From Nitrosopumilaceae archaeon (lineage in GTDB: Archaea; Thermoproteota; Nitrososphaeria; Nitrososphaerales; Nitrosopumilaceae), in contig CBDATR010000024.1 of NCBI GenBank assembly GCA_965200155.1, positions 448,673-512,672 on the forward strand: a DNA stretch of 64,000 nt, in the 5' to 3' direction. Shown piece by piece: positions 4,722 through 52,576 of the stretch; the stretch's first letter is position 1; the number at the start of each line of letters is the position of its first letter. The notes below the pieces were generated by a model, which made no database searches, was not told the origin of the DNA, and was given only the letters and a program-made list of their open reading frames with translations. The translations under genes and the position numbers were made by a program.

Positions 4722-5390
4722 AGTTGGGAGACATGGATGTCATTTATTAAATTGTGAGGTATGCGGCGAACGTAACAGTTTATGTCTCACAAGTTCGAAT
4801 ACAAGCTTGCCGGGATAGTGGAAGACTGACCATTTTCAAAATACGTTTGTTTATTGCGAACCTGTTCTCTGAGCACACATTTGCCACAGACTTGTGTAAC
4901 ACGTCATAAACACTGGCAGCCTGGATCAGAGTATGGCGAAGGTGACCCAAATGGTCACTACAGGAACCGCTCATGACGGTAGTAAATGCTTACTCTGTAA
5001 TCCGGGCCCTTGGCAGTGACCAAGGTCATTGTACAATTGCTCTGTTATTGAGATTGATGTGACGCGATGGAGCAGTATACGCTATGACTGACAGAAGCAT
5101 ATCCTCTGTGTAGTATGTTTAATGTACGCGTAAACCCACTACAAATCTTGGATACCAACTTATGGTATGAACTCGCCACCTCAAATGGGGATCTCTGGGT
5201 GACCTAAAAGGTTACAATAAAACTCAGTAGGAGATTTAAATTGAAAAGAAAGGCAGTAGTATGAGTTCACGTGTTTTGATCATTCACTAAGATATAGATT
5301 GGCATGACAATATTTTACTTAAATACCAAATTTGCAATAAGAATCTAATGAGAAGACGCCGGTCCTATAAGGAATTGGAACTGAAAAATA

Positions 5391-5480
5391 GTATGAGTTC
5401 ACCTGTGTCTAAATTTACGCACAACTGATCGCGACAGTTAATGTGATTTGTGCACGATTCCGGAAGACGTGAACTCATAC
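5391..5480. mobile_element. 92-bp-family MITE (90 bp)
   Basis: TIR gtatgagttcac; near TSD gaaaaata/aaaaaata. Confidence 0.88.
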
Positions 5481-5505: not shown

Positions 5506-5607
5506 CTTGCGTCTACCAAGAAAGAACTTGCACATTACAAGGCAGGGGCCATGGGCCGCCTTGTCCTACGTCTTGCGGCTACCGAGAAAGATCTTGCACA
5601 TTACAAG
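5506..5607 (+). CRISPR. CRISPR-like mini-array inside IS66 transposase (2 repeats, one 30-bp spacer)
   Basis: 36-bp repeats 5506-5541 and 5572-5607 (second degenerate); spacer is a deleted version of the last spacer of the 52173-52425 array. Confidence 0.65.
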
Positions 5608-10267: not shown

Positions 10268-10501
10268 GATGGGTAAGTTGTTTAATAAAATAAATGTCGC
10301 CAACGAGGTTGTAGGTACTGACTCGGAGATACTAGGTGAGGAGCTCATGCCAAAACAATTCAACGATAATTACACCAAGATAAGAAAGATGGCGTATGAG
10401 TTCACGTGTTTTGATCACATAATAAGATAGAATACATCCCAGTTTTTTAATTATAACTGCATTCTGGCAGCAACCTCGTTCATTACAGAAAGGCCTTGAG
10501 C

Positions 10502-10600
10502 GTATGAGTTCACCTGTGTCTAAATTTACGCACAACTGATCGCGACAGTTAAAGAACCGGTTCTTTTGTGCACAAGATTCCGGAAGACGTGAACTCATAC
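10502..10600. mobile_element. MITE (99 bp, with palindromic scar)
   Basis: TIRs; TSD ccttgagc. Confidence 0.92.
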
Positions 10601-10707
10601 CCTTGAGCCCTCCATGTCTGAACGCATGATACGAATGTAGACATGCGGCGCATTGCCCTTTCGCCACCCTTTATCTGGCCACCAATCTTGCGGAATACCA
10701 CTGCGTA

Positions 10708-12162
10708 TCAGAACCGGTTCCACTGCTCCGCTGGATTGTTGGTGGGCTCTACACTGTCATATTCTAAGAATACGAACATGCCTGGTATGGCCTTATTCAA
10801 TCCTTTTACCTTCTTTTGTAGTTCAGTATCATCAACATCACAGTACTGATGCAGAATGGATTCTGCTCCTGTCTCAAATGAGTGTCGTAATTGCGCGGAC
10901 GGCCCGCAGTGATTCAGGGATTCCCGTGCGCTCCGGAACAATCCTTTCAGGTCGTTGTCAAGTTTGATCCGGGCGTCCTGAGCACCGGGATCGATATAGA
11001 ATCCTGCATGTAATGCCTGGGTATCGCGCAATAAATGCGCCCAACACAACTGGTGCTTCCCACCGTCATCAAACCGGCGGTACACAACGTACCTGTCCGT
11101 TACTATCGCTCCCTGGTAACCGTTCAGGTATTTGTTCACTACATTTGAACTCCTACTTTTGTCATATATGGACATCATCCACTCTTCGGCTCGCATCCCC
11201 CATACCCAGCCACGCCTACCCGCCAGTGATATACCAGTTTCGTCCACATGAATGCTGGGTGATTTTATTATATTTTCATGAATTGTTTCCATAAATGATT
11301 CACATGCATCGGCGGCCCTGGCAATTATGTTGTTTACTGCACCCACCGATATATTTAGGCCGAAGAGATCCTTCGAAATTACAGGTATGCGTTTTATTGG
11401 AATCTTTTCTGCGCGTAATGCAGTGATGGCACCGCATAATTGAACCCCAAAACTACCACTCTTTGGGACGCCAGCTGCTGGGGCCAGTTGTTTTTTGCCG
11501 CACATACATGCAGCCATTTCTATCATATGGTGGGCCTCCTCTATTTTGGCTGGTATTAATTCCGTTATGTGTCGTTGTTTCCAACCAATTTTTGTCATCA
11601 TATTGCCGCACTCACATATTGGTGTGTACTCAAAGGTGTGATGCACTACTCTGCCGGGGTTGTGGGAACGGGAAACCCCCTTGTGTCCCTTTTGAGCGCC
11701 AGCCTTTTTGGCTGATTTCGTACTGGCTTCTTTCTGTTGCTTATTATCTCCCTGTTTTCGCTTCTGCTCCTCCTGTTTTCGCTTCTTGTACTGGAGGGAT
11801 TGAAGGGATGGTGGCGAGTGAGCATTCTCATAATATTTAAGTCGCGTTGTGAGTACCACAATTTTCCCCTGTTTTTCTTTTAATTTCTCATTCAATTCAT
11901 TTACATAATTCCTAATAATTTGGAAATCTTGTGTGAGATTTCGTATTTCTTTTATGATGCGGGACACATATGCTTCCAATACTCTCACACGTTCCTTGTA
12001 ATGTGCAAGATCTTTCTTGGTAGACGCAAGCAAGCGACTCATTCGCAGTGTCGCCCCGCCCAAATACTTGTAATGTGCAAGATCTTTCTTGGTAGACGCA
12101 AGGGTATCCTGAAGAAGTTTATTTTCCAGTTCCAATTCCTTATAGGACCGGCGTCTTCTCAT
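10708..12162 (-). CDS. IS66 DDE transposase, C-terminally truncated by a scar
   Basis: Coiled coil, NAHSPPS, GAQKGH, CxC zinc, HVDETG, TDRY, QLCWAHLLR, EPTNNPAE. Confidence 0.9.
   Translation of the reverse strand: MRRRRSYKELELENKLLQDTLASTKKDLAHYKYLGGATLRMSRLLASTKKDLAHYKERVRVLEAYVSRIIKEIRNLTQDFQIIRNYVNELNEKLKEKQGKIVVLTTRLKYYENAHSPPSLQSLQYKKRKQEEQKRKQGDNKQQKEASTKSAKKAGAQKGHKGVSRSHNPGRVVHHTFEYTPICECGNMMTKIGWKQRHITELIPAKIEEAHHMIEMAACMCGKKQLAPAAGVPKSGSFGVQLCGAITALRAEKIPIKRIPVISKDLFGLNISVGAVNNIIARAADACESFMETIHENIIKSPSIHVDETGISLAGRRGWVWGMRAEEWMMSIYDKSRSSNVVNKYLNGYQGAIVTDRYVVYRRFDDGGKHQLCWAHLLRDTQALHAGFYIDPGAQDARIKLDNDLKGLFRSARESLNHCGPSAQLRHSFETGAESILHQYCDVDDTELQKKVKGLNKAIPGMFVFLEYDSVEPTNNPAEQWNRF
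11995..12102 (-). CRISPR. CRISPR-like mini-array inside IS66 transposase (2 identical repeats, one 36-bp spacer, in frame)
   Basis: Repeats 11995-12030 and 12067-12102; unique spacer 12031-12066. Confidence 0.7.
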
Positions 12163-12660
12163 TAGATTCTTATTGCAAATTTGGTATTTAAGTAAAATAT
12201 TGTCATACCAATCTATATCTTAGTGAATGATCAAAACACGTGAACTCATACAAGATGGCCACAAAAGATGGTGCCAAAACCATAATTGAATCACTAGAGC
12301 GGGAGTCGGATATGATGCCAAATACATCACCACTAAATGAGCTTAGAAAGTTCGTCAAGAAGCGTGGTATAGATAGTATGAGCGAATTCCCAATGGGGCG
12401 CAGAGCAGGCAAGCGCGGCAAGCGGGAGATTATACTATCCTATAAAGAAAAAGGGGGCATGTATATTTTGTGACCTATGACAGGAACAAGAAGAAGGCGA
12501 AAGTACCGGATGATGAATCTGAACTTGTCCGGCGATTACAATGTGTCCCTGACACAGAGTCTTATTTGTCGGAAGACGGACCGAAACACAGGGAATCATT
12601 CATGACTTTATTGGAGGTAGACAAGGCCGCTCGTAAGAAAATTATGGAACGAAATGAATT

Positions 12661-17694: not shown

Positions 17695-20600
17695 ATGGCC
17701 ATTCCGGTTAAGTTTGATGTCAAGGGCATAGAGAAACAAGTAAGGGATAACCTGAATCTCAAAGAGACTAGACGTGTAATAGCGGAATCTGGCCGCCCCG
17801 CCATATCGTTCATAGAGGGACCGCCTACGCTGAATGGCAACCCACATGCAGGGCATCTTCGGGGAAGGGTGATCAAGGATTTGTGGTACCGGTATAATAC
17901 GCTGGCAGGAAAGAATGTGGCCTTTCAGGGTGGATGGGATACGCAGGGGCTGCCCGTGGAACTGCAAGCCGAGAAGGAGCTGGGAATCACAAAATCCCAG
18001 ATAAAAGATGAAGCAGGGGTGGAGAACATGGTAGCCACATGCAAGGATATAGTGAAGAGATACAACAGGCAGTGGGAGGAGGTTGATGCCCTCATGGGCA
18101 TGTCCATGGATCATTCCAGGTCATACTGGACATACAGGGACAGTTACATAGAGAGGGAGTGGGACATACTCAGAAAAGCCCAAGAGTCAGGGATACTGGA
18201 GGATGACTATACTGTAATAGGATACTGCCCCGGGTGCCAAACCTCGCTTAGTCATGCGGAGGTGAACCAGGGGTACGAGATGGTCCGGGATCCCTCGCTG
18301 TACTACAAGGTACTATTGCAAGATGAGGATATCTATCTGGTGGTCTGGACTACCATGCCATTCACGCTGGTCACCGACGCCATGGTAGGCCTGCATCCAC
18401 ATGAGGACTATGCAATAGTACAGGTAGGGAGTGAGAAATGGGTCATTGCCAAGCGGAGACTGGAGGAGTTCATGGAGGAGGTGAGGACACCAGAGTATCA
18501 TGTACTAGACACGGTGAAGGGATCACACTTTGAGGGCAAAAAGTATGTGCATCCATTACTGGAGGAGATACCGCACCTGGCTTCTCTGGCAGCATCAGAC
18601 AATTACCATACGGCCGTGGCAGAATCCTTTGTCGATGTGAATACGGGCAGCGGGCTTGTTCACCTAGCCCCGGCCAACGGCGAGGAGGACATTGCCATAG
18701 CCAAGAGAAGAAATGTCAGAATATTCTGCCCCATGGACGAGCAGGTACGCTTTACTAAAGAGGCGGGCGCGTATAGTGGGATGTTCGTCCGGGACGCGGA
18801 TGAAAGAATAGTGGAGAATCTCAGAGAGAGAGGCGCCCTGGTCAAGGTGGGACGGATAAAGCACAAGTACCCGCTATGCTGGAGATCCCGTCACCCCATA
18901 GTGTGGCTGGCCCGGAGGGGCTGGTTCTACAAGCTGGATAGGATGGGGGACGCTGTAATTAATGCCGCGAGTGCAGTCCGGTACTTTTTTGACTCACCAA
19001 AGAACAGGTTCCTTGGAATAGTCAGCGAGAGGCACCCCTGGTGCATATCCCGGGAGAGATACTGGGGATGCCCCATACCCGTCTGGAGTTGTAATGACTG
19101 CCAGGCCAAGACATGGTGCTATAGTCGCGCCGAGATATGCAGGGCAGCCAAGAATCTCCCCGATGGGCCAAACTTTGAGCTACACAGACCCTGGATAGAC
19201 AGAATCAGCGTGAAATGCTCAGAATGTGGCCGTTACAACACCAAAAGAGAGCAGTTCGTACTGGATACATGGCACAATAGCGGCGCCGCCCCCTTTGCAT
19301 CCCAGAGTGACTTGGCATATAATGAAACCATACCGGCTCCCTTCTTTACTGAGGGGATTGATCAGACCAGGGGATGGGCGTATACCTTACTGGTGGAGAA
19401 TGTCATTCTGGATGGCAAATCCCCCTACAACTCATTTCTGTTCCAAGGACACGTACTGGACGAGAAGGGCGGCAAGATGAGCAAGAGTCAGGGAAACGTA
19501 ATAGATGCCAAACAGCTGTTAACAGAGCACCCGGCGGATCTAGTACGGCTGTATTTCATGTGGAAGGCCAGTCCCGTAGAAGCTCTAAACTTTAACCCCC
19601 AGGAGATGATGTCAAGACCATACCAGATACTGAGTACATTATACAACCTGCACCTGTTCTACATGCAGAATGCAGAATACGACAAACATGACGTAACGCA
19701 GGATGTGAAATGGACCGCCGGACATGGGTTCTTGGAACCGCCGGACATTTGGCTTCTCTCCAAGCTGCAGAGGGTCACAGAAGTGGTTACAGAAAAGTGC
19801 GAGGCCTGCAAGTTCCATGAAGCGGCCAAGGCAATAGATGATTTTGTCATTAACGTACTCAGCCAGTCCTATGTGCAGAGTATCAGGAATGAATTGTGGG
19901 AGGAGTCCGAGAGTGATAGGCGCGACACCATATATGCGGTATTAAGGCATGTACTCCTGTGCATAGATATAATGCTGCACCCCTTTTGTCCATTTACTAC
20001 CCAGTACCTGTATCACAGTATATCCGGGGGCACGATACTGCTGCAAGCTTGGCCCAAGCCCGACACCTCCCTGATAGATTATGACATGGAAGAAGACTTT
20101 GACTCCATGAGGACTATACTATCGGTAGCCTCGGCCGCAAGAGCCAAGGCTAGACTCAAGAGGCGCTGGCCCCTGGAGCGGGCCATAGTTGTGGTACCGC
20201 CGGGCAAAGAATCGGTGGCAAGGTTGCGGGAACGGCTACAAAATCAGATGAACGTGGAGGCCATAGATGACATTAAAGTATGTACGGACAAGGGGGACTT
20301 GGAGACATTAAATGATTTAATGAAACTGAACATGCCTATCACCCCCAAGATAGAGATGAACATGAATCGCATAGGGCCCCGCATAAAGAGTGGTATGGGA
20401 GCCCTTCGAAAGGCATTTGCGCAGACCATTCCACAAGACATACTGGACTCGCTTGCAGAGGGCGGACACGGGTTCGATACAGGTAGTGATGGCACGATGC
20501 TGTACCGGGAGGACTTTGTCTTCGGGTATGAACCCCAGGAGGGGTTCCAGGTGGCATCCCGGGACGGATACATTGTATTTGTATCCACCACGCAAAGCGA

Positions 20601-23191: not shown

Positions 23192-24665
23192 TCAATAGTA
23201 CGAAAAGTAAGTCCACTTAGGATCCGGCGTACAGTAGTTCAGATTGCACAAGCCACGAAAGGCTATGGTAAAGAGAATAACAGAGGAATCAAGACAAGAG
23301 GCGTTGCCGCCACCAAAATGTATGAGTTCACGTCTTCCGGAATCTTATGCACAAATCACATTAACTGTAGCGATCAGTTGTGCGTAAATTTAGACACAGG
23401 TGAACTCATACACCAAAATAGCTCAAGACCTGAAACAAGACACGTGCGAAGATTGTGAACCAGAGAACGGGAACGACTCGAGTAAAGATGGGCAGGCCTA
23501 TGATACCAATCACCGCCACCCAGATACGAATGGTAACTGAAGCATATCACAAGGATCCCGCCGGAGTAAGTACGTATTGCAAAGAGGCTTAGACAGAATT
23601 ACAATATATCATATCGCGCAGTATATCGCAATAATGAAAAAGAACGGTACGGCAGGATCATCACCTGCAAAGTCAGAGTGGGTACGCTATGAGCGTAAAT
23701 ATTCCAATGCAATATGGCAGTATGAGTTCACGTCTTCCGGAATCTTATGCACAAATCACATTAACTGTAGCGATCAGTTGTGCGTAAATTTAGACACAGG
23801 TGAACTCACACATGTCGCACGTAGACTGGCATGTCATGAAAGATGAGCGCTTCAAGGGACTGAATCTCATAGATGATGCAACCGGGTGTATAGTCGGGGC
23901 GGCACTTTGAGCATGCAACCTCAGAGAACGCCGCTCTATTACTGAGACTGGCAATGAAACGATTCGGCGCCCCTGCATCCATACTATCTGATAACGGCGC
24001 GTGTTTCGTAGGACAATAAAGGGGCAAGAAAAGCTGGAAACCCACACTATTCTAGGAAGAACTGCTGGATCAAGACATCAGTATGAGTTCACCTGTGTCT
24101 AAATTTACGCATAACTGATCGCAACAGTTAATGTGATTTGTGCACAAGATTCCGGAAGACGTGAACTCATACAGACATCATACTAATCAATTCCAGACCA
24201 TACCACCCGCAGACAAATGGCAAACTGGAGCGCTTCCATAGAACGATTGAGGACGAGATATGGCATTCAATCTCCCACTGGGACCATGACCCCCGTCCTG
24301 CAGGCTTCACAGAACGATTGAGGACGAGATATGGCATTCAATCTCCCACTGGGACCATGACCCCCGTCCTGCAGGCTTCCACAGAACGATTGAGGACGAG
24401 ATATGGCATTCAATCTCCCACTGGGACCATGACCCCCGTCCTGCAGGCTTCCACAGAACGATTGAGGACGAGATATGGCATTATGACAGTCTCCGGGATT
24501 ATGTGGACTACCACAATGAGAGAAGATTGCACTTCTCACCGGATATAGATAACGGCGAAACGCCGCTTCAGGAATAAAAAGGCGACCCAGACAACTAGGG
24601 CAAATGATGCAAAATGGATGGAGCGGGATACCAATGACTAGCGGACCGACTTTTCATACATTACA
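23192..24665 (+). mobile_element. IS481-family element, degenerate, with three MITEs (23320-23411, 23720-23811, 24081-24172)
   Basis: Imperfect TIRs tcaatagtacgaaaagt / tgtaatgtatgaaaagt; 15-bp TSD ggtaaccgttgcgcg; remnants RYER...WHVDW, DDA, ILSDNG, QTNGKLERFH; MITE TSDs accaaaat and agacatca. Confidence 0.85.
24232..24482 (+). repeat. 36-bp duplicated IS481 sequence x4 separated by a foreign 36-bp insert x3 (CRISPR-like unit)
   Basis: Repeat gcttccacagaacgattgaggacgagatatggcatt; insert caatctcccactgggaccatgacccccgtcctgcag is absent from the IS481 copies near 61057 and 62600. Confidence 0.9.
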
Positions 24666-50756: not shown

Positions 50757-52576
50757 GTACGAGTTCACGTGTTTTGATCACATAATAAGATAGAATGCAT
50801 CCCAGTTTTTTAATTATAATTGCATTCTGGCAGCAACCTCGTTCATTACAGAAAGGCCCTGAGCCCGCCATGTCTGAACACATATGGACATGCGGCGCAT
50901 GACCCTTTCACCACCCTTTATCTGGCCACTAATTTGTATGAGTTCACGTCTTCCAGAATCTTATGTACAAATCACATTAACTGTCGCGATCAGTTATGCG
51001 TAAATTTAGACACAGGTGAACTCATACACTAATTTTGCGGAATACCACTGCATATCAGAACCGGTTCCACTGCTCCGCTGGATTGTTGGTGTGCTCCACA
51101 CTGTCATATTCTAGGAATACGAACATGCCCGGTATGGCCTTATTCAACCCTTTTACCTTCTTTTGCAGTTCAGTATCATCAACATCACAATACTGATGCA
51201 TCTGCTCCTGCCTCAAATGAGTGTCGTAATTGCGCGGACGGCCCGCAGCGATTCACGTGCGCTCCGGATCAAATCGTTGTCAAGTTTGATCCGGGCGTCC
51301 TGATCACCGGGATCGATATAGAATCCTGCATATAATATACTGGTATCGCGCAATAAATGCGCCCAGATGGTGCTTCCCACCGTCATCAAACCGGTAACAC
51401 ATAACGTACCTGTCTGTGACTATCGCGCCCTGGTGACCGTTCAGGTATTTGTCCACTACATATGAACTCCTACTTTTGTATATCCTCCACTCTTCGGCCC
51501 GCATCCCCCATATCCAGCCACGCTTACCCGCCAGTGATATACCAGTTTCGTCCACATGAATGCTGGGTGATTTTTTCATAAATTGTTTCCATAAATGATT
51601 CGCATGCATCGGCGGCCCTGGCAATTATGTTGTTTGCCGCACCCACCGATATATTCAGGCCGAAGAGATCCCTCGAAATTACAGGTATGCGTTTTATTGG
51701 AATCTTTTCCGCACGTAATGCAGTGATAGCACCACATCTCAAACCACCACTCTCTGGGACGCCCGCTGCTGGGGCTAGTTGTTTTTTGCCGCACATGCAG
51801 GAGGCCATCTCTATAACATGAAGGGTCTCCTCTATTCTGGCTGGTATTAATTCTGTTATGCGTCGTTGTTTCCAACCACTTTTTGTCATTATATTGCTGC
51901 ACTCACATTGTGGAGTATGCTTAAAGGTATGACGCATTATTCTGTCGGGGTTGTGGGAACGGGAAACCCCCTTGTGTCCCTTTTGCGCGCCAGCCTTTTT
52001 GGCTGATTTAGTACTGGCTTCTGTCTGTTGCTTATTATCTCCCTGTTTTCGCGTATGAGTTCACCTGTGTCTAAATTTACGCACAACTGATCGCGACAGT
52101 TAATGTGATTTGTGCACAAGATTCCGGAAGACGTGAACTCATACCCTATGCTTCCAATACGCTCACACGTTCCTTGCAATGTGCAAGATCTTTCTCGGTA
52201 GCCACAAGACGTAGGACAAGGCACATGTTGCCCATGGCCCCTGCCTTGCAATGTGCAAGTTCTTTCTTGGTAGACGCAAGATTCCGTGCGGCGATATGGA
52301 TCTGAAGCAACAACGACCTTGCAATGTGCAAGTTCTTTCTTGGTAGACGCAAGGAGAGGCTCGCATATAATGAATCGCGTGCCCGTGACCTTGCAATGTG
52401 CAAGTTCTTTCTTGGTAGACGCAAGGGTATCCTGAAGAATCTGAATTTCCCGTTCCAATTCCTTATAGGACCGGCGTCTTCTCATTAGATTCTTATTGCA
52501 AATTTGGTATTTAAGCAAAATATTGTCATACCAATCTATACATCTTAGTGAATGATCAAAACACGTGAACTCATAC
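50757..52576 (-). mobile_element. IS66 element, degenerate, with MITEs at 50936-51027 (TSD actaattt) and 52053-52144
   Basis: Both TIRs; frameshifted transposase; deletion next to the 52053 MITE. Confidence 0.9.
52173..52425 (-). CRISPR. CRISPR-like array inside IS66 transposase: four 36-bp repeats, three unique spacers (36, 37, 36 bp)
   Basis: Repeat CTTGCGTCTACCAAGAAAGAACTTGCACATTGCAAG at 52390-52425, 52318-52353, 52245-52280 (identical) and degenerate terminal copy 52173-52208. Confidence 0.8.

Follow-up and report, generated by a model that had tools for sequence, protein, structure and literature searches.

The window examined here, a 64,000-nt stretch of DNA from a Nitrosopumilaceae archaeon, contains three copies of an IS66-family element, each harbouring one or more short repeat-spacer-repeat units. 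The features of the copy whose spacer is termed S4, and the corresponding regions of the other two copies, are as follows:

10394 to 12251, minus strand: IS66-family element copy (ends and flanks read directly)
10708 to 12162, minus strand: transposase ORF of 484 aa (P0001), including a 24-codon insert and ending at a premature stop (ORF list and translation)
12067 to 12102, minus strand: 36-nt repeat copy on the transposase-start, leader-like side (direct reading)
12031 to 12066, minus strand: 36-nt spacer S4, captured DNA (direct reading)
11995 to 12030, minus strand: distal 36-nt repeat, with the same sequence as the transposase-start copy (direct reading)
10708 to 10722, minus strand: 15-nt segment replacing 9 nt of intact copies and ending in TGA (sibling comparison)
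10501 to 10600, no strand assigned: MITE of ~100 nt inserted towards the 3′ end of the IS; 8-bp duplication GCTCAAGG (direct reading)
5506 to 5607, plus strand: second IS copy, with repeat, old spacer S1 in its 30-nt form, and repeat; the repeats have diverged
52173 to 52425, minus strand: third IS copy; its four repeats enclose S1 (36 nt), S5 (37 nt) and S6 (36 nt)

The S4-bearing copy displays terminal inverted repeats (GTATGAGTTCAC...) at both ends of 10394-12251, and its target duplication, the 8-bp GCCATCTT, occupies 10386-10393 and 12252-12259. Target duplications of 8 bp are typical of the IS66 family, and Pfam PF03050 (DDE_Tnp_IS66) matches both P0001 (E=1.3e-34) and P0002, the 508-aa form of the transposase (E=9e-40). 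The element is ~1.6 kb in size with one long ORF, and the tnpA/tnpB accessory ORFs of canonical IS66 elements are absent. This counts against the canonical three-ORF form, but not against membership of the IS66 family, within which single-ORF subgroups exist. The nearest transposases outside this genome show 30-34% identity and lack the whole N-terminal segment of ~73 aa. A search of 40 relatives for the 5′ region of the IS gave only three short and weak matches, and the IS repeat returned 0 matches in metagenome contigs and 0 in genome contigs.

A sequence-only reading of this region had described two identical 36-nt repeats around a 36-nt spacer, and had proposed that the insert arose by in-frame spacer acquisition that leaves the transposase ORF open. 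Direct reading confirmed the repeats at 11995-12030 and 12067-12102, with the insert at 12031-12066 being the reverse complement of the string originally quoted. The 72-nt unit corresponds to 24 codons without a stop inside ORF 10708-12162, and its frame on the minus strand reads ...LASTKKDLAHYK-YLGGATLRMSRL-LASTKKDLAHYK... throughout. The ORF is thus left open locally, in that the S4 unit is in frame, but not in the copy as a whole, which has both a premature stop and a MITE insertion. The C-terminus of P0001 (..AEQWNRF*) falls ~48 aa short of the P0002 form, and this premature stop is common to four single-repeat siblings. When up to 3 mismatches are allowed, the repeat has seven matches in the window, at 5506-5607, 11995-12102 and 52245-52425, compared to none in 100 dinucleotide shuffles of the same sequence. 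The 37-nt spacer at 52281-52317 was correctly described as a frameshift; this is S5 of the third IS copy, which is also broken by a MITE at 52053-52144. The MITE family itself (~100 nt) bears the terminal repeats of the IS66 element, GTATGAGTTCAC, has hundreds of copies in the genome (at least 284 BLAST hits), and is inserted in all three IS copies of the window (5388-5478, 10501-10600 and 52053-52144).

With regard to the IS66 site beyond the window, the genome is represented by a 2.38-Mb assembly of 51 contigs, estimated to be 87.6% complete, within which a full-length match to archaeal SSU rRNA is present. With a tolerance of 7 mismatches, there are 90 occurrences of the repeat, distributed over 66 places: one repeat at 50 of these, two at nine, three at six and four at one. 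A two-repeat place, C24:175463, is an internal partial duplication without a spacer, and therefore 15 places carry spacers. Single-repeat alleles not only exist, but are in the majority (50 of the 66 repeat-bearing places). Alignment of two such empty-site siblings, C22:659 and C24:157697, with the S4 copy reveals a clean 72-nt insertion, with the site otherwise unchanged. The S4 copy groups with C22:659 in an IS tree that was built from 400 nt, is noisy, had 24 of 63 copies dropped, and was used only for this grouping. The possibility that the insert is native transposase sequence is contradicted by the predominance of single-repeat alleles, together with the lack of the N-terminal segment in distant IS66 homologues; and no S4-like sequence was found as native sequence in related IS66 elements.

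Across the genome, six unrelated spacers occur at this site, always within the same 36-nt boundaries:

S1: 36 nt, also present as a 30-nt deletion form; common to many copies, with diverged flanking repeats
S2: 36 nt (35 nt in one copy)
S3: 37 nt
S4: 36 nt, at 12031-12066 of the window
S5: 37 nt
S6: 36 nt

The identical boundaries of these unrelated spacers uphold the earlier proposal that a single 36-nt site was hit independently. S3 and S4 are each found in otherwise single-repeat lineages, whilst S1 is old and shared among IS copies. There is a clear polarity to the arrangement, in that S1 always lies on the far side from the transposase start, and in the four-repeat array the three near-side repeats are identical and the far repeat is different. 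Copies bearing S1 and S2 occupy several different flanks, indicating that these mini-arrays multiplied with the IS after acquisition. At C31:2830-3009 an IS copy displays the order repeat-S2-repeat-S2-repeat, in which the same spacer unit is duplicated, presumably from recombination or slippage and not from a second acquisition.

Support for the S4 unit from public sequencing runs takes the form of assembled contigs. Such contigs from the runs of two studies, some of these runs being labelled as sponge metagenome, extend over the S4 bin, and one contig from a third study joins across precisely these 72 nt. In the public-run contigs, depth at the S4 bin is much lower than that of the multi-copy IS flanks. 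As for the origin of the captured DNA, a BLAST search of the organism's own genome found no donor for S4, and its 24-nt core returned 0 matches in viral contigs and 0 in metagenome contigs; donors of S1-S3, S5 and S6 were likewise not found in the own genome or in viral or metagenome contigs.

The genome possesses one Cas1 gene, encoding a 549-aa Cas4/Cas1 fusion, which is followed by Cas2 (Pfam, E=1.1e-18). The fusion matches PDB 7mi4 from Geobacter sulfurreducens over residues 9-548 (E=1.1e-147). An array of 289 repeats lies downstream of cas1-cas2, with Cas8g, Cas3g, Cas5-6g and Cas7g beyond it, PADLOC matches for the type I-G genes being 1.4e-172, 1.5e-58, 5.9e-153, 1.8e-116 and 2.1e-40. 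The Cas3 frame is continuous, and the system is a complete type I-G system and the one such system in the genome. It is located on a different contig from the S4 unit, which sits inside the transposase ORF. The native repeat is 36 nt in length and returned 0 matches in the genome contigs searched; the 288 native spacers are mostly of 37 nt (101), 36 nt (85), 38 nt (63), 35 nt (16) or 39 nt (15). In view of these lengths, a 36-nt duplication with a 36- or 37-nt insert is the exact footprint of the native integrase. The S4 target duplication equals the native repeat at 36 nt, and its 36-nt insert falls within the native spacer range, 280 of the 288 native spacers being 35-39 nt long.

A further unit is present within the cas locus itself, where three repeats lie between the cas1 stop and the cas2 start (C9 ~70400-70590; L032 ~18400-18590), ~400-450 nt upstream of the native array. 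This unit has 37-nt repeats and two spacers, both with chromosomal sources, and its repeat and the native repeat have TTTC and GGTTGCG in common, in register. The cas1-cas2 interval of three relatives from the same genus contains no extra repeats.

The off-target phenomenon spans the genome, a scale that the sequence-only reading did not see. A search of the assembly for exact direct repeats (24 nt or longer, periods of 30-200), with tandem arrays and the native array excluded, gave 219 pairs, of which 70 had periods of 71-75 (7, 28, 18, 10 and 7, respectively), compared to a largest count of 10 for any other period, and 0-4 for most. The repeat length of these 70 pairs peaks at 36 nt (17) and 37 nt (20). 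A set of 54 pairs was reduced to 50 distinct units by dropping C2:5217 and C10:347801 (tandem or protein repeats) and two with repeats shorter than 33 nt. These 50 exact units have duplications of ~36 nt, and four of them are in IS66. A mismatch-tolerant scan yielded ~6 further diverged units, and a comparison of repeated elements gave two further pairs ~72 nt apart, so that with S1 and S2 the total comes to ~55-60 events. A crude array finder also flagged an 18-mer that occurs four times, ~75 nt apart, at ~24239-24464 of the window (C24:472911-473136), and this recurrence is probably a coding repeat. As a control, the same scan was applied to G005, a complete sister genome of 2,214,775 bp whose system is of the same kind and has a repeat of 36 nt, and gave only two candidate units, the period-75 matches there being protein repeats. 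These candidates, at 586038 (L079:8938) and 2004738 (L150:14738), measure 36/38 nt and 37/35 nt, and no self donor of either was found.

Half of the inserts (25 of 50) match another place at E<=1e-6. In 24 cases the match is to chromosomal sites, with 19 identical over the aligned part, and in these self-derived cases the duplication length is 36 in 13 and 37 in four. Contig C10, which makes up 23% of the assembly, holds 13 of the 24 chromosomal donors (P=0.0008), one of the 13 being a multi-copy MITE. By contrast, no credible chromosomal source exists for any of the 288 native spacers; besides N58 there is one 17-nt match at chance level. The remaining one of the 25 matching inserts, the ectopic spacer at C25:4797-4831, overlaps native spacer N58 (array on C9) by 26-28 nt with offset ends, indicating that the same foreign DNA was sampled for both correct and stray integration. 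TTN is not enriched at the flanks of self-protospacers (5 of 48 sides, compared to ~3.4 expected). As the Geobacter enzyme selects TTN, this lack suggests that the stray events bypass the Cas4 checkpoint, or else take another route.

Turning to target choice, comparison of the targets with the native repeat in register gives a mean best identity of 13.17/36, compared to 11.37 for random 36-mers (sd of the mean 0.32), and none of 2000 resamplings reaches 13.17. Repeat positions 2, 3, 5, 11, 12 and 26 are enriched at the targets, an excess that persists when the two IS66 entries are removed (0.46-0.56, compared to ~0.3). For these six positions, which were picked post hoc from the same 39 sites, 21 of the other sites (n=39) match at four or more (background 13%) and none at all six, whilst the IS66 site matches at 6/6 (background 0.08%) in the transposase-sense orientation. 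This is also the orientation implied by the polarity of the arrays. The IS66 site has inverted CTTG/CAAG ends, with four of five terminal positions pairing, a level reached by 1.7% of random 36-mers; terminal symmetry amongst 15 exact 36-nt targets averages 2.2, compared to 1.26. An EM motif search over the targets produced a weak motif with no control, and was replaced by the in-register comparison. Similarly, GAATTGGAA was considered as a common leader motif and set aside, as it is not enriched at the other targets (~1.3 expected in 100 flanks, and one non-IS match).

If events were evenly spread, ~0.0014 hits would be expected on the ~60 IS sites, compared to at least three primary hits (S1, S3 and S4) and three secondary hits observed at the IS66 site. 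The preferences described above explain this hot spot only partly, as they were chosen post hoc and all six favoured bases coincide at 1495 positions in the genome. A second hot spot is a MITE of ~80 copies with five independent events at one 36-nt site (C13:35858, C34:37402, C34:161231, C10:326758 and C10:127995), single copies of which are present in the window at ~23936, 41830 and 62893. A third repeated element shows three events, at C22:6122, C10:339147 and C35:29690.

The sequence-only reading had also suggested that spacer length could gate IS activity, with 36-nt spacers tolerated and 37-nt spacers disruptive. When tabulated, four of the six IS spacers have a length that is a multiple of three (P=0.12) and all four in-frame spacers are without a stop (P=0.10), and gating of IS activity by spacer length is not supported by these numbers; most IS copies are broken anyway. 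A full-length ORF is kept at 10 places, comprising nine of the 50 single-repeat places and one of the 15 that bear spacers; this sole full-length spacer-bearing copy, C43:71455, has the 30-nt form of S1 in frame. The 37-nt spacers S3 (C10:83012) and S5 both shift the transposase frame. Over the whole genome, the period is divisible by three in 26 of 50 units, compared to 35% expected (P=0.010), but this excess is no stronger in long ORFs (9/15) than elsewhere (17/35; P=0.54). Selection for in-frame inserts was therefore rejected as an explanation, the enrichment being overall and not specific to long ORFs. Some host ORFs stay open through in-frame units, such as one extended from 575 to 599 aa at C22:16729, and others are split by units (C10:141058, C10:229607, C10:288031 and C10:311421).

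Spacer acquisition as the origin of the insert, as first proposed, is supported by these data, and the 72-nt unit is very probably the product of one off-target (ectopic) integration by the organism's own type I-G Cas4/Cas1-Cas2. In such an event the integrase would attack the two strands at positions 36 nt from each other, within a repeat-like stretch of the transposase gene's 5′ coding region, a 36-nt prespacer would be joined, and gap repair would duplicate the 36-nt target. These would be the same steps by which spacers enter real CRISPR arrays. Further spacers would then be added on the transposase-start side, as at a leader, and IS transposition would multiply the older mini-arrays. That this site has been hit at least six times may reflect its six-position match, its inverted CTTG/CAAG ends and its presence in ~60 copies.

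It is highly improbable that the mini-array instead functions as a CRISPR locus, or is the beginning of one, being transcribed with or against the transposase mRNA and processed into type I-G guide RNAs. The repeat-spacer-repeat architecture and leader-like polarity are as such a locus would have, the 9-nt GAATTGGAA precedes the IS site by 36 nt and the native array by 41 nt, and contigs from an RNA library lie over the S4 bin, which does not in itself demonstrate transcription. However, the IS repeat and the native repeat agree at only 15-16 of 36 positions, and the IS repeat forms no stable hairpin (-4.4 kcal/mol in the transposase sense and -8.3 on the other strand, compared to -14.3 for the native repeat), and in half of the other ectopic units the spacers are self-derived, and would be autoimmune if used. 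From this limited repeat identity, the weak fold and the many self-derived spacers, we infer that the stray units are non-functional by-products, which may be tolerated because they are not turned into guides. Ectopic integration could alternatively be a selected, interference-free means of disabling mobile elements, in which repeat-like sites of IS66 and MITEs would be preferred targets and frameshifts would kill individual copies, in line with the earlier idea of gating by spacer length. All three multi-copy hot spots are indeed repeated elements (at least six events for IS66, five for the MITE and three for the third element), and 37-nt spacers do shift the frame, but the list of hot spots carries a strong ascertainment bias, because independent hits at one site become visible only where a sequence exists in many copies. 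Single-copy sites have also been hit twice (the cas1-cas2 junction and C24:237593), host genes are split too, IS lineages bearing S1 or S2 went on to several flanks, and full-length ORFs are rare either way (1/15 with a spacer and 9/50 without); selected disabling consequently appears most improbable.

An origin by native protein-repeat evolution, through slippage or tandem duplication in a coiled coil, by a small mobile element, or as an assembly artefact can be given almost no weight. The site does lie in a repetitive, coiled-coil-like N-terminal extension, and one IS variant (C24:175463) has a partial internal duplication lacking a spacer, but the 36-nt inserts bear no relation to the repeats around them and vary among copies. 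In addition, terminal repeats are absent from the inserts, 24 of the 50 similar inserts elsewhere copy single chromosomal sites, and the S4 bin is covered by contigs from the runs of two studies. In a wider and rather unlikely scenario, the native adaptation enzyme would act as a genome-wide insertional mutagen, repeat-mimicking transposable elements would be both its traps and its vehicles, stray spacers would disable some IS and MITE copies without interference, and transposition of the surviving copies would spread ready-made seeds for new arrays.

Off-target integration by the adaptation enzyme has a counterpart in the neo-CRISPR arrays described by Nivala, Shipman and Church (2018) in Escherichia coli over-producing Cas1-Cas2, which likewise involve a non-CRISPR site, a duplication of repeat length and repeat-spacer-repeat units that can grow; a citing preprint describes natural evidence for neo-CRISPR arrays as circumstantial and in two other species. 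Unlike the E. coli arrays, formed with over-produced enzyme, those here derive from a natural archaeal type I-G system with 50 exact events and a few diverged ones, approximately half of the spacers are self-derived, and the hot spots lie in transposable elements that copy the arrays. Cas1-Cas2 of Pyrococcus furiosus shows off-target integration in vitro at repeat-like sites (PMC6698737), and just as those off-targets share repeat features, the targets in the present genome are more repeat-like than chance; the P. furiosus substrates were plasmids in vitro, whereas the events here are fixed in the genome with their duplications repaired. Ectopic spacer acquisition in Streptococcus thermophilus similarly takes place away from the leader-proximal repeat (PMC7999890), but within a genuine array, as opposed to the non-CRISPR targets seen here. 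Finally, the type I-U/I-G Cas4/Cas1-Cas2 of G. sulfurreducens is homologous to the present enzyme (PDB 7mi4, E=1.1e-147) and selects TTN-flanked spacers, described there as non-chromosomal in origin (PMC6547450), whereas the ectopic spacers of the archaeon have no TTN signal and half are chromosomal. Full-text searches, which covered main texts, found no natural genome with dozens of such events and no IS-borne spacer units, although natural cases may be listed in supplementary files. The mechanism is known from engineered E. coli, and it is the natural scale, the self-derived spacers and the spread by an IS that are new.

Demonstrations of off-target integration have come mainly from engineered E. 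coli and from work in vitro. The ~55-60 fixed natural events of one type I-G system provide a data set on target preference, as well as a contrast, in a natural setting, between ectopic sites with self-derived spacers and a working array that has none. Among the events are stray spacers that split host genes and mini-arrays copied by an IS, and taken together they open both the fidelity of CRISPR adaptation and its cost in fitness to direct testing.
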